Positions 23,140 to 26,159 of a DNA stretch of 64,000 bases are shown here, piece after piece; within the stretch, counting starts at the first letter, position 1, and the number at the start of each line of letters is the position of its first letter. The translations under genes were made by a program, and so were the position numbers. A model generated the notes under the pieces. That model was not told the origin of the DNA. It saw only the letters and a list, made by a program, of their open reading frames with translations, and searched no databases. The stretch comes from an uncultured Bacilli bacterium. GTDB lineage: Bacteria; Bacillota_I; Bacilli_A; RF39; UBA660. The DNA is taken from positions 4,829 through 68,828 of the forward strand of contig CANRDB010000001.1 of NCBI GenBank assembly GCA_947629315.1, given 5' to 3'.

Positions 23140-23301
23140 GCAGCAACTGGTCCTACGGGGGCAACTGGTGCAACCGGTCCTACGGGGGCAACTGGTGCAA
23201 CCGGTCCTACTGGAGACATTGGTCCTACTGGTGATGTTGGTCCTACTGGTCCTACCGGAGCAACTGAACCTTATCTGTTTGTCAAAATATCCACTCTATA
23301 G
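23140..23301 (+). pseudogene. Collagen-like gene segment lacking a start codon, lying 20 bp after the recombinase stop
   Basis: Frame +1 reads [53 protein letters not shown]. No ATG/GTG/TTG is usable. The last 20 bp overlap the 3' end of the convergent recombinase gene. Confidence 0.5.
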
Positions 23302-24796
23302 TAACTACTCTTTTTCCCTGTTCTATATTGCCAATTTGTATTCGTTGAATAAAATTCTTTACCGTCTTAAGGGAAAGTTCAAGTTTTCTTTTAGAAAAAG
23401 AAAATGACATTTGTTCTTTTTTCATATTGGCAAGAGTATTTGATAACTTCTCTAACTCTTTGATATAACTTTTTTTGAGATTTTGAAAAACCTCATCATC
23501 TAGTTGTTGTTGAACATAATCGTCATACACTTTTTTTAAGCCTCGTTCTTTTTGATGGTAATCTTTTTCTAATCGTTCAAATTCTTTCTTATATAATAGA
23601 TTCTGTTCTATACTATATTGCTTCTCATATTCTAAAAGCAATTGTTCGTCGACAAATTGATGATAAAACTTCAAAAATTCTTTGAACACTAAAGATTCTA
23701 TCACATCCAAACGAATAGAGGTATGATTATCACAATGTTGCCAATAACTTCTTCTATCACGACAAACTAAATACGAATACACAGAATGGCTAGAAGAATT
23801 TTTTTCAAAGGATTGTCCACATTTTTGACAATATATTTTTTTACTAAACTCATAAATTTTACCCGTTTTAGATTGAATTCTCGTCTTTTGTTGCATTCTT
23901 CTTTGTACCTCATTCCACATCGATAAAGAAATAATCGGGTCATGCTGATGAGATACAACAATCCAATCCTTTTTTTGAAGAGAAATTACCTTTTTATTTT
24001 TATAGGAAATTTTTCGATATTTTCCCTGTACTACACTACCAATATACACTTCATTTTTTAAAATATCTGCAATTGTTTTTTCACTCCATTGATTACTAGT
24101 CGATGGTCCATAATATTTAGAACCTATTTCTTTTTTATATTGACTGGGAGTTGGAATCCCTTGATGATTCAAACACTGCTTAATTTTAGAATATCCATAA
24201 CCTTTCGCATATAACGCATATATTTGTTGAACATATTTAGAAGCAATCGGGTCAATTTCTAAATGATTTTTATCTTTCTTTTGGTAACCAAAAGGCGCAA
24301 AAGAACCGGTAAATAGACCAACTTCTTTTTTATTTCGTAATGTTTTACGAATATTTATAGAAGAATCTTCCAAATACCATTCATTCATCAAAGCATTGAT
24401 TTGTCTGGTTTTTTTATTTTCTTCTACAGAGGTATCAGCATGATCAACTAAACTGATAAAACGAACGTTCCACTCTTTAAATTTATTATGAATATATTGT
24501 TCAATTACTTCTAAATCTCTCGAAAAGCGAGACTGACTCTTACATAATACAATATCAATATTTCCTTGTTCACAATCTTTTAGCATGCGGATAAAAGCTG
24601 GTCTTTCTCTATCGATACCAGAGTAATCCTCATCAATATAAATATCAAAGATATCCCATCCTTCTTCTTGAACTTTTTGAAGTAACATTCTCCTTTGATT
24701 TTGAATACTTTCACTAAAGTCTTTTTTATCAATATCTTCTTTGGATAATCGCAAATAGATTGCTACTCTATTGTTCCCTATCATAAGATTCCTCAT
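23282..24796 (-). CDS. Large serine recombinase, paralog of 21123..23120
   Basis: [13 protein letters not shown] motif with extensive N-domain identity to the upstream recombinase (…[35 protein letters not shown]…), a zinc ribbon (CQKCGQ…[11 protein letters not shown]) and a coiled-coil tail. Confidence 0.85.
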
Positions 24797-24983
24797 TTTG
24801 AGAAAGAATTTCTTGTTCTAATACCGCCAACAACTGACGATTAAAAGTTTCTTTCCTTTGTTCCATAGACTTTTCCTCATCATGGAATACATTGATTATT
24901 TCAATATTATATTTCATATTTTCACCATTACAAAATATGAAAAAAAGCGAAGATTTATATCTCCACTTCTTTCTCCTGCAAAA

Positions 24984-26012
24984 TCATTTTCGCTGTTGGC
25001 TAATATCTAATACCCATAAAATATTCGATGGTAGAATACTTCCACAATACGAGCATATCTTATCAAAGAGTCCCACATTGGCGCCACAATTGTGACATTT
25101 TTTCACACTATTCATCGTAAACTTCGGATAATAATTTTGATTACGAATCAAGGTTACTGTTTCTTTTCCCTGCACTTTTTTGATGCGACCATTGCGTTCA
25201 AAATACTTTCGAATAATAAAAGTAATTCGAATGGCAGGAATATTCCCCTTCTTGATAACTTTATAAGTATCATACTCTAAAATTTCAAAATCTACTAAAT
25301 CTTGATATTGAGGAAAAATTTTCTCATCATAGTAATGCACCAACAATTGGTAATTTAAATCTTGAATAATCTTTTGATTACTCATCCGAACTTTATCAAT
25401 CATAATTCTATCATTCCTTAAGTCACGATAGGTAATCACTTTTACCAAAAGATAAGGAATCAAAAGAAAAGTATACAATAGATGAAGAGTAAATAGCATA
25501 ACAGGTAGTGTCACGAACATCAACATAACGGCAATAAACCAAGGATACTCTCCTGACTGTAAAGTTCCCATAAACGATATACCTGTCAAAATCATGCAAG
25601 TGCTTCCCAAAAAGATTTTATACTTTTTCATAGAAAAAATCTGTTTAAAGGATTGTGTCAAATTTTTTTGATGAACTCCCTGTTCTAAATAAAAAGAAGC
25701 TCCACAATAAGGGCAACCATCGTAAAACTCTTTTTCAGTAGCATGATATCCACATTCAGAACAAGTAAATTCATTATCCCCTCTAGATAATGTCATTGTA
25801 TAAGTTATGTTATCATCAAATTTCTTTTCACGATAAAGACGTTTTCCACCTTGATAATAATTTTTCTCTATCTTATTAGCTTTATAAACAGAATCGTTTC
25901 GGTTTCCATTTAAAGTACGAACAAATAACTGATCTTTATGTCGAAAAATCTCCTCTACTACAAGATTCTTTTTAGCAAGTCTTTGTAAATGCATTTGTAA
26001 AGGACTTGGCAT
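24984..26012 (-). CDS. Membrane protein with two CxxC…CxxC zinc-ribbon motifs flanking a TM region
   Basis: CSECGYH…CPYCGA near the N-terminus, TM helices in the middle, and CHNCGAN…CSYCGS at the C-terminus. Confidence 0.4.
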   Translation of the reverse strand: MPSPLQMHLQRLAKKNLVVEEIFRHKDQLFVRTLNGNRNDSVYKANKIEKNYYQGGKRLYREKKFDDNITYTMTLSRGDNEFTCSECGYHATEKEFYDGCPYCGASFYLEQGVHQKNLTQSFKQIFSMKKYKIFLGSTCMILTGISFMGTLQSGEYPWFIAVMLMFVTLPVMLFTLHLLYTFLLIPYLLVKVITYRDLRNDRIMIDKVRMSNQKIIQDLNYQLLVHYYDEKIFPQYQDLVDFEILEYDTYKVIKKGNIPAIRITFIIRKYFERNGRIKKVQGKETVTLIRNQNYYPKFTMNSVKKCHNCGANVGLFDKICSYCGSILPSNILWVLDISQQRK

Positions 26013-26084
26013 ACTATCACACTCCTACTATTCTCATTATAACAAAAAAAGTCCTCATCACAACTATTTTTTTCTATTTTGACA

Positions 26085-26159
26085 ATGAACTATGGAGCAA
26101 CTGGTCCAGTAGGTCCTACTGGAGACGTTGGCCCTACGGGTCCTACTGCACTCACTTAA
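26085..26159 (+). pseudogene. Very short collagen-like ORF/fragment ([24 protein letters not shown])
   Basis: Read in the correct frame. No RBS, and the ATG overlaps a TTGACA hexamer. Its 5' end is collinear with the start of the 29421..29834 segment. Confidence 0.35.

Follow-up and report, generated by a model that had tools for sequence, protein, structure and literature searches.

Within the 64,000-nucleotide stretch examined here (hereafter the window), which comes from an uncultured Bacilli bacterium (assembly GCA_947629315.1, contig CANRDB010000001.1), a single collagen-like gene lies in four pieces. The pieces are held apart by three elements, E1, E2 and E3, each of which carries its own large serine recombinase (LSR; rec1, rec2 and rec3, respectively), and when they are joined at the boundaries listed in Table 1 they yield an 807-bp gene, an unbroken open reading frame (ORF) of 268 amino acids (aa). 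The rebuilt protein has an N-terminal domain, a GPT run, an ITIGTTTTG motif, some 140 residues of GPTGATGAT and GPTGPTGD(V/I) repeats and an LTIGTVTT C-terminus; it matches the collagen domain PF01391 (E = 7e-21) and no other Pfam domain. As it stands on the chromosome, the first piece breaks at 18703, runs into E1 and ends as an 89-aa product with …GATDAMS and a stop codon; collagen-coding DNA then reappears at 23141-23266, 26094-26147 and 29439-29834. We hold this anatomy, that is, three LSR elements with their attachment (att) sites and a gene that their removal reconstitutes, with high confidence.

A preliminary description of this DNA had reported the middle unit alone, as 2,837 bp flanked by a direct repeat of the decamer GGAGCAACTG at 23257-23266 and 26094-26103, and the sequence bears out both the repeat and most of what was drawn from it. 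The decamer occurs four times in the window against 0.05 copies expected, a number that none of 100 shuffles reached, and another copy on the + strand, at 18694-18703, forms the left-hand junction of E1 and pointed to the start of the gene. The collagen frame does break at the left repeat and restart at the right one (a frame of Gly-X-Y triplets, GXY, occupies 23149-23265 and is taken up again from 26094), the minus-strand recombinase and the double-zinc-ribbon membrane gene said to lie between the repeats were both located and matched to their domains, and a join in silico gives the continuous frame foretold for a deletion. Two parts of the description need amending. The repeat is a shared att core, as proposed, but strand exchange is placed at the AC dinucleotide (A 23263 / A 26100) and not anywhere in the 10-mer; and E2 is bounded as described, but its removal alone leaves the gene broken at 18700 and 26145.

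By every feature tested the three recombinases are LSRs. Each matches PF00239 (E = 7e-19, 6e-24 and 4e-17 for rec1, rec2 and rec3), scores above the cut-offs for PF07508 and PF13408, and keeps the catalytic motifs Y-x-R-L-S-K-E and S-R-(F/L)-(S/G)-R-D, which in rec2 read YLRLSKED and SRFSRD. The nearest solved structure to rec2 is that of SPβ SprA/YokA (9dxh; E = 1.8e-15), matched at low sequence similarity over residues 10-486, including the region past the zinc ribbon; in LSRs a coiled-coil motif that governs direction is set within the zinc-ribbon domain. Rec1 and rec2 share 54% identity over their first 230 residues and 29% over the remainder, rec3 is about 30% identical to both, and the recombinase domain of rec1 holds an insertion of about 130 aa that fits the 631-703 aa of its relatives. 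In all three elements the stop codon of the recombinase lies 17-25 nt from its own crossover. None of the three passed the NCBIfam equivalog models for XisF and CcrA/B/C (best scores of 68-122 bits against cut-offs of 375-900); XisF is the best NCBIfam match of rec3, and on that model the three score 68-92 bits against a cut-off of 375. Pfam and PHROG comparisons brought out no recognisable phage genes in E1-E3, and no replication gene was recognised in any of them. A comparison of rec2 with viral contigs gave no match, and an alignment of the rec3 family gave relatives of only 24-25% identity. A candidate relative of rec2 among annotated phages and plasmids (MT837840, 6.9 kb; best identity 40%) was set aside as unrelated, with a G+C of 61%.

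For each element, attP (the circle junction) and attB (the rebuilt host site) were built from the two chromosomal junctions. In all three the strands cross over at the dinucleotide AC within an ACT codon for Thr, always in one reading phase and in the context gcaACtg or cctACtg, within shared cores of 8 bp (E1), 10 bp (E2, the longest) and 4 bp (E3). About this AC, the rebuilt attP is symmetrical at 20 of 26 positions in E1, 18 of 26 in E2 and 20 of 26 in E3, compared with a mean of 7.0 (standard deviation 2.3) at random centres in the window, where the probability of reaching 16 or more is 3e-4; an imperfect inverted repeat about a 2-bp centre is the defining geometry of an LSR site. The arms are TTTTGTGgTTTATG / CATAAAtCACAAAA in E1 (also written TTTTGTGGTTTATG), TATTTTGACAA / TTGTCAAAATA in E2 and AGTGCCACTTT / AAAGTGGCACT in E3, and their differences fit three recombinases with separate specificities. 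AC stands on the same strand at six of six junctions and, since it is non-palindromic, this direct orientation provides the geometry for excision and not for inversion. The predicted rebuilt junctions are CCTGCAGGAGCAACTGGTCCTACGGGG (attB1), CCTACCGGAGCAACTGGTCCAGTAGG (attB2) and ACGGGTCCTACTGGTTCTACTGGAG (attB3), and the predicted circle junctions GTCTTTGCAGCAACTGATGCTATGTC (attP1), GAACTATGGAGCAACTGAACCTTATC (attP2) and AATGGTTTGCAACTGCACTCACTTAAAAG (attP3). The earlier reading of the E2 repeats as attL and attR with a common core is upheld by this symmetry, by the three LSR domains of rec2, by a homologous element in the orthologous gene of another genome (at locus L002; loci retrieved for comparison are numbered with the prefix L) with matching arms and a caACTG core, and by the uninterrupted orthologue described below.

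Collagen repeats often break assemblies, and several related contigs end inside them, so that a chance repeat among collagen codons or a mis-assembly had to be weighed. Against both, same-species contigs from three other samples (assemblies ERZ27249148, ERZ27249360 and ERZ27249643; contigs L085, L087, L088 and L089) cross the junctions of the window at 99.9-100% identity, spanning 22600-25072 (L087), 24159/24486-26165/26243 (L088/L089) and 28325 onward (L085); junctions reproduced in independent assemblies are not an assembly artefact. A symmetry of 18-20 in 26, three times over, does not come from chance joins, and homologous elements of the same architecture are found in other species. The chance match allowed for in the preliminary description is ruled out by the attP symmetry and the independent junctions, and to chance and mis-assembly together we attach practically no credence. 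The same contigs differ from the window by whole repeat units at a few places. L087 has a 51-nt in-frame deletion in rec2 (24093-24138), which in a low-coverage assembly may be either real variation or repeat collapse. In L085 the last collagen piece is shorter by 135 bp, or 45 codons (29555-29577), and there is a 36-bp gap (32491-32526) in the gene at 32153-33802, which may likewise be real repeat variation or collapse in low-coverage assemblies.

An empty site, whose absence would have told against the preliminary description, was found when homologous loci were aligned. An uninterrupted orthologue at L011 7855-8586 (243 aa) lies immediately upstream of the same glycosyltransferase gene and reads straight through the E1 site, and the rebuilt protein of the window is colinear from end to end both with it and with the rebuilt gene of L002 (358 aa).

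Table 1. The split collagen-like gene, its three elements and neighbouring genes; positions count from the first letter of the window.
Feature	Positions	Strand	Length	Remarks
Collagen piece 1	18448..18700	+		ATG, Cys-containing N-terminal domain, short GPT run, first ITIGTTTTG…NFVIPAGAT motif
attL of E1	18696..18703	+		core AGCAACTG; predicted crossover AC at 18700-18701
Element E1	18701..23146		4,446 bp	E1-like element with same cargo in L010
O-acyltransferase, E1 cargo	18743..20977	-		Acyl_transf_3/SGNH, by Pfam
rec1	21123..23120	+	665 aa	LSR, by Pfam; TTG start
attR of E1	23142..23149	+		core AGCAACTG; AC at 23146-23147
Collagen piece 2	23147..23263	+		39 GXY-repeat residues; no in-frame start codon of its own
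attL of E2	23257..23266	+		left GGAGCAACTG; AC at 23263-23264
Element E2	23264..26100		2,837 bp	repeat search pair 23248-23289 / 26075-26116
rec2	23282..24796	-	504 aa	LSR; PF00239, PF07508, PF13408; stop codon 17 nt from crossover
Small ORF of E2	24768..24917	-	49 aa	overlaps rec2 start by 29 nt; candidate directionality factor or regulator
E2 cargo	24984..26012	-	342 aa	two zinc-ribbon motifs, hydrophobic (membrane-like) core; 74% identical to L002 4490-5515
attR of E2	26094..26103	+		right GGAGCAACTG; AC at 26100-26101
Collagen piece 3	26101..26145	+	45 bp	15 residues; just fits outer half-sites of attR(E2) and attL(E3)
Element E3	26146..29442		3,297 bp	repeat search pair; core ACTG only, 26145-26148 / 29442-29445
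Lys/Glu-rich protein of E3	26257..27651	+	464 aa	hydrophobic N-terminus, signal- or lipoprotein-like by eye
Small ORF of E3	27732..27824	+	30 aa	weak version of small-ORF family
rec3	27831..29420	+	529 aa	LSR domains, by Pfam
Collagen piece 4	29443..29834	+		84-residue GXY run, C-terminal 46-aa LTIGTVTT… motif, stop codon
Glycosyltransferase family 2 + TPR gene	29840..30925	+		6 nt downstream of collagen gene; conserved partner of collagen-like genes across clade
SpoIIIAH-like gene	12616..13113	+		σE-type promoter match
GerE-family regulator	13195..13401	+	68 aa	AC-N16-CATAAAATA, σK-type match
Germane/GerM-like gene	13449..14405	+		sporulation context

Comparable insertions recur in related genomes. 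A scan of species-representative genomes for the glycosyltransferase returned 80 loci, all belonging to uncultured gut Bacilli that go under the names Bacilli, Tenericutes or 'Mycoplasma sp. CAG:877', and homologous elements lie in collagen-like genes at L001, L002, L010, L039, L066, L076, L082, L090, L093, L097, L102 and L103 (L097, L102 and L103 being human-gut examples), with cores that resemble CAACTG or CCTACTG. The nearest relatives of rec2 belong to metagenome-assembled genomes (MAGs) from rabbit gut. In L002 the orthologous gene, with a SecA-like gene on one side and the glycosyltransferase on the other, contains a single element of 5,016 bp, in which a rec2-like recombinase (48-49% identity) and the zinc-ribbon gene (74%) are accompanied by added genes for upp and a uracil permease, its junctions reading …gggagcaACTG/…TTGTCAAAAA and TTTTGACAAtgaactatgaaacaACTG/gtcc. 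In L010 at least two elements occupy the orthologous gene, one of them E1-like with the same acyltransferase and the other rec3-like and bounded by GGTCCTACTG. Across all the fetched loci, collagen-coding DNA begins 16-70 nt past the stop codon of most distinct recombinases of this kind. One and the same element adjoins one collagen gene in L102 and a different one in L103, which means that a sequence motif is targeted and not one gene. At these two loci (1-7750) the relatives of E3 are larger: in front of the recombinase and the small ORF described below they carry genes for two helix-turn-helix (HTH) regulators, for a DnaB-like helicase and for an excisionase-like protein (HTH_17). The minimal elements of the window may be stripped-down versions of such replicative islands. 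The O-acyltransferase of E1 is 50% identical to that of the E1-like element in L010 (2637-4844) and 46-47% identical to chromosomal neighbours of uninterrupted collagen-like genes (L065 6922-9132, L077 3131-5296), and E1 seems to bear a gene functionally tied to its own target locus.

Interruption can also be read from protein collections. A search with the N-terminal domain retrieved 105 proteins of 68-151 aa, among which the want of longer proteins may be a bias of the search; 25 are complete small collagen proteins, and 30 end just after Thr (Ile in two) within a GXY run and continue into an unrelated tail. The tail ARCNKSSIY(I/F)FKW occurs in seven different proteins, and others recur as well (ARF…, ARLF…, PRLF…, ETYKSV…, EPY…). 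Uninterrupted orthologues of 243-306 aa do occur in the fetched loci, though all 105 database proteins are of 151 aa or less; either the collection, or its word index, may contain too few of the long collagen proteins, or interrupted and small forms may be even commoner than counted. At some loci (L005 2-538, L006 2-328, L008 3-338, L046 8794-9984, L068 8748-9911) the collagen locus is a row of short ORFs that begin 'M…YLLNFVIPQGPTG', pass into GXY repeats and end '…TIGTVTTGAPG…VTITP' and a stop, so that stop and restart fall inside the globular motif, as though it were common to adjacent polypeptides.

A second recurrent feature is an ORF of 30-57 aa with the motif …I.N.FN..NKS.EELK..FN.KL…, which lies directly upstream of the recombinase gene and often overlaps its start. 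It was seen in E2, L001, L010 (both elements), L039, L066, L076, L082, L090, L093, L097 and L102, and in a weak 30-aa version in E3; for the form in L102/L103 there are records on 226 contigs. The protein collection contains 212 members of the family, all unnamed and all lacking a Pfam domain, and profile searches of Pfam, PHROGs and PDB gave no match and no detectable similarity to known directionality factors. Where it lies, how often it overlaps the start of the recombinase gene and the purifying selection upon it make the small ORF the best candidate for a recombination directionality factor. In L039 (~6560-6630), L066 (~6430-6495) and L082 (~7680-7730) a GC-rich hairpin GGCGCT…AGCGCG followed by GTTATAATTT stands between the small ORF and the rec1-like gene; it could control the recombinase as an attenuator or as an internal promoter, and it has no counterpart in E1 of the window.

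Purifying selection acts on the recombinase, on the small ORF and on the two unique ends of the split gene. In a comparison with the closest species (the genome of L001/L007), in which the gene is interrupted by an E2-like element too, the ratio of nonsynonymous to synonymous divergence (dN/dS, with dS in brackets) is 0.11 (0.68) for rec2, 0.14 (1.02) for the small ORF upstream of it, 0.23 (0.93) for the N-terminal and 0.15 (0.88) for the C-terminal part of the collagen gene and 0.25 (1.04) for the glycosyltransferase, values that bear on an interrupted gene only if the insertions predate the species split. Rec2 is 86% identical to its L001 copy, compared with 42-71% for host genes. A recent horizontal transfer of E2 was considered on account of this identity, but a dS of 0.68 means that the two copies are old, which speaks rather against it.

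These observations bear on whether the elements are simply selfish. On that account they would be insertions with no programmed role at a codon-constrained GCA/CCT-ACT-GG landing site, the gene would be a four-piece pseudogene, dispensable or redundant, and excision would be rare and serve the movement of the element. The recurrence of one tail in many collagen genes and positions agrees with such a motif-bound target, the G+C of the elements lies slightly below that of their flanks (0.30-0.33 against 0.33-0.35), and the dS of rec2, lower than that of host genes (0.93-1.66), would fit horizontal spread. A pseudogene, however, sits poorly with four pieces that are all open and in phase, and with unique gene ends that are as constrained as the glycosyltransferase although the gene is interrupted in both species. 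Interruption is very common among the N-terminal homologues, yet the fragments are seen intact; and every junction examined lies in a collagen-like gene of a kind that carries mother-cell-type promoters, as in the known sporulation intervening elements. We regard the selfish account as a real but minority possibility.

The promoters of the clade suggest a link between the gene and sporulation. In B. subtilis CATAnnnTA is the −10 consensus of mother-cell sigma factors (for σK, AC-N16/17-CATAnnnTA). Among the fetched loci, CATAnnnTA stands before 42 of 49 collagen-like genes, mostly 25-32 nt from the ATG, as against 38 of 592 other genes (Fisher p = 4e-36), and as a positive control all five gerE homologues carry AC-N16-CATAnnnTA. 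In the window, SpoIIIAH-like, GerE-family and Germane genes lie 4-6 kb upstream of the collagen locus, and FtsK/SpoIIIE genes are present too; the spoIIIAH-like gene has the σE-type match ATATT-N14-CATACACT. A relaxed σE pattern, ATA[TA][TA]-N13-16-CATA[CT]..T, which precedes only 6 of 656 background genes, is found as ATATAA-N15-CATATTTT ahead of the operon of the E2 small ORF and rec2, and is conserved in L001. The collagen-like protein itself is GPT-rich, shows no signal peptide or sortase motif by eye and adjoins the glycosyltransferase of the GT2-TPR type; by analogy it may belong to the spore surface as a glycoprotein resembling BclA, produced at a late stage by the mother cell.

We lean, if only slightly, towards the view that E1, E2 and E3 are intervening elements of the skin/SPβ/gin type, excised in the sporulating mother cell. 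The three are integrated at ACT codons of the repeats coding for Gly-X-Thr, each most probably through its own LSR. In the sporulating mother cell a small partner would turn each recombinase to excision, attL and attR would recombine at AC, circles of 4,446, 2,837 and 3,297 bp would be released, and the 807-bp gene would be rebuilt in that cell only and transcribed from a mother-cell promoter. The forespore chromosome would retain all three insertions, and the elements would thus be inherited without cost to the host. The same logic is established for skin, for SPβ in spsM and for gin in gerE (PMC5025042, PMC4191935, PMC5499854, PMC5595907). Here, we infer the timing of excision.

A number of points weigh against this programmed excision, and several of them would suit selfish elements. 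Exact-protein look-ups in the same species found no excised or empty allele and integrated forms only, and a scan of metagenome contigs with a degenerate pattern of the E2-family attP gave no matches. That four samples show only integrated forms is compatible with excision confined to the mother cell, yet it does not discriminate among the explanations. E1 is without an upstream small ORF, although all other rec1-like recombinases examined have one; if it is the small ORF that supplies the directionality factor, E1 may be unable to leave and the gene defunct, and the role given to the small ORF is itself a guess. The collagen promoter of the window, CGTAcctTA, departs from the CATA core by one mismatch and lies at the 83rd percentile of a matrix built from relatives. 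This matrix does not single out the recombinase operons (68th percentile for E2, 43rd for E3 and 23rd for E1), so that the σE assignment of E2 rests on the consensus match and its conservation in L001; nothing resembling a σE or σK site was matched in E1 or E3. In the clade, some genomes have several collagen-like paralogues at the locus, and the loss of one copy might be tolerated. Finally, the host's capacity to sporulate is judged from few genes, and the related uncultured orders include both sporulating and non-sporulating species, with an ability predicted to vary (PMC10868615).

The elements might instead form an on/off or length switch in vegetative cells, in which stepwise excision would turn on a collagen-like surface protein, or recombination among different att sites would give proteins of unequal length and so vary the cell surface. 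With all three crossovers in the same codon phase, any combination of a left with a right site would be in frame; the number of collagen repeats varies among samples, as in L085, and a SecA-like gene and a sortase are found near the locus. LSRs, however, need cognate attP arms, and with three unrelated pairs mixed recombination is unlikely; as the main mechanism, we rejected it on this ground. Since no replication gene was recognised in the elements, an excised circle would be lost in dividing cells, making the switch one-way. The want of a signal peptide or sortase motif in the protein and the mother-cell type of the clade's promoters also speak against a vegetative surface role, and we think such a switch improbable. 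The SecA-like gene just upstream (14652-18366) is itself in two parts, since the frame shifts at a run of A, …gaattaaaaaatgaatg…, near 15355-15400, leaving ORFs of 238 and 988 aa, where L001 and L002 have single genes of 1151 and 1124 aa; the split may be a sequencing error in the homopolymer, a pseudogene or a slippery site. Two further GXY runs on the + strand, at 31688-31858 and 38771-38872, were rejected as collagen, being reverse frames of minus-strand stretches rich in Pro, Ala, Val and Thr, in genes for a 312-aa membrane protein (30961-31899) and a clostripain-family peptidase (36709-38907).

Set beside the known systems, the locus appears to work like the intervening elements of sporulation. 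Skin, about 48 kb in size, splits sigK of B. subtilis and is excised by SpoIVCA. In skin, as in skinCd of C. difficile, an LSR element splits a mother-cell gene whose frame excision restores, and the recombinase or its helper is controlled by a mother-cell sigma factor, to which the σE-like match of E2 may correspond; skin, however, is prophage-like, single and in a regulatory gene, whereas the window has three minimal elements of 2.8-4.4 kb, known from sequence, in a structural repeat protein. SPβ of B. subtilis, with SprA and SprB, has an LSR, as here; the gene that it splits, spsM, concerns the spore surface (spore polysaccharide), as the collagen-like gene probably does, and a small protein controls its direction, as the small ORF may do here. 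It is, however, an active phage, the resemblance of rec2 to SprA is low, and the small ORF has no detectable similarity to any known directionality factor. The heterocyst elements of cyanobacteria (fdxN, XisF) undergo programmed excision in a terminal cell, and XisF is an LSR, but the phylum and the type of differentiation differ and all three recombinases of the window fall far under the XisF cut-off. The heterocyst system also includes genes with more than one such insertion.

Among spore proteins the likeness is to the BclA type (BclA of B. anthracis and BclA1-3 of C. difficile), in the GPT-rich Gly-X-Y repeats, the lack of a signal peptide, the adjacent glycosyltransferase and, in the clade, the late mother-cell-type promoter. 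BclA has a C1q/TNF-like C-terminal domain. The protein of the window ends instead in short TIGTxTTG…NFxIPxG motifs, and Pfam found neither this domain nor an N-terminal exosporium-targeting motif, so we call it BclA-like in its presumed role and not a member of the BclA family.

In the architecture of the elements, gin and the tandem integrase arrays are further parallels. For skinCd, excision takes a recombinase and a directionality factor (PMC5025042). Gin, in gerE of B. cereus ATCC 10987 (GirC/GirX), resembles the present elements in being non-phage, with serine recombinases and an inverted-repeat attP about a central dinucleotide; it has a 9-bp shared core, its excision needs the recombinase and a small extra factor, and it is a single 28.6-kb element with three recombinase genes, only one of which is needed (PMC5595907). 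Here, by contrast, three elements lie in one gene, each with its own att sites. Tandem arrays, described under 'regulated gene integrity', likewise place several integrase elements at one locus and inactivate a target gene that excision could restore (PMC7192596), but the classical arrays reuse one attB core, regenerated at an element end, whereas the three sites here are distinct, 117 and 45 bp apart in a repeat array, and the attP arms that serve them are unrelated. That survey says nothing of collagen-like genes (PMC7192596), and in full-text literature searches no case came up in which a recombinase element interrupts a gene for a collagen-like or exosporium protein.

What appears to be new is that one small gene harbours three independent minimal elements and that a whole lineage of recombinases has for its target a motif coding for protein repeats; the family of companion ORFs and the host, an uncultured gut Bacilli lineage, seem new as well. 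As a more speculative proposal, which we advance tentatively, a lineage of LSRs may have specialised on the Gly-X-Thr repeats of spore-surface collagen genes, a target with many copies in each genome and conserved between species, so that mutually orthogonal elements could stack in one small gene. They would act as a developmental switch with several locks, in which the gene is rebuilt only once three different recombinases, each with a partner of 30-57 aa from a previously undescribed class of directionality factor, have all fired in the mother cell; and the acyltransferase of E1, in other genomes a fixed neighbour of the target gene, would mark a partial domestication.

To our knowledge, only a handful of genes are rebuilt by programmed excision in terminally differentiated cells (among them sigK, spsM, spoVFB, spoVR, gerE and the heterocyst nif/hup genes). 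If the explanation favoured here is true, it would add to these a structural gene of the spore surface, in an uncultured gut lineage of reduced genomes whose sporulation is debated, and would mean that three minimal elements can coexist in one gene of 807 bp. The locus also suggests that a large group of recombinases, unreported in the literature searched, is directed at a motif coding for protein repeats, with about 30% of the retrieved N-terminal homologues interrupted, and that the small ORFs are candidates for a new family of directionality factors. Naturally orthogonal sets of integrases that share a central dinucleotide and use related attB sites would be useful for genome engineering. 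Moreover, gene callers render such split genes as short 'hypothetical' fragments, and the spore-surface proteins of gut MAGs are probably under-counted.

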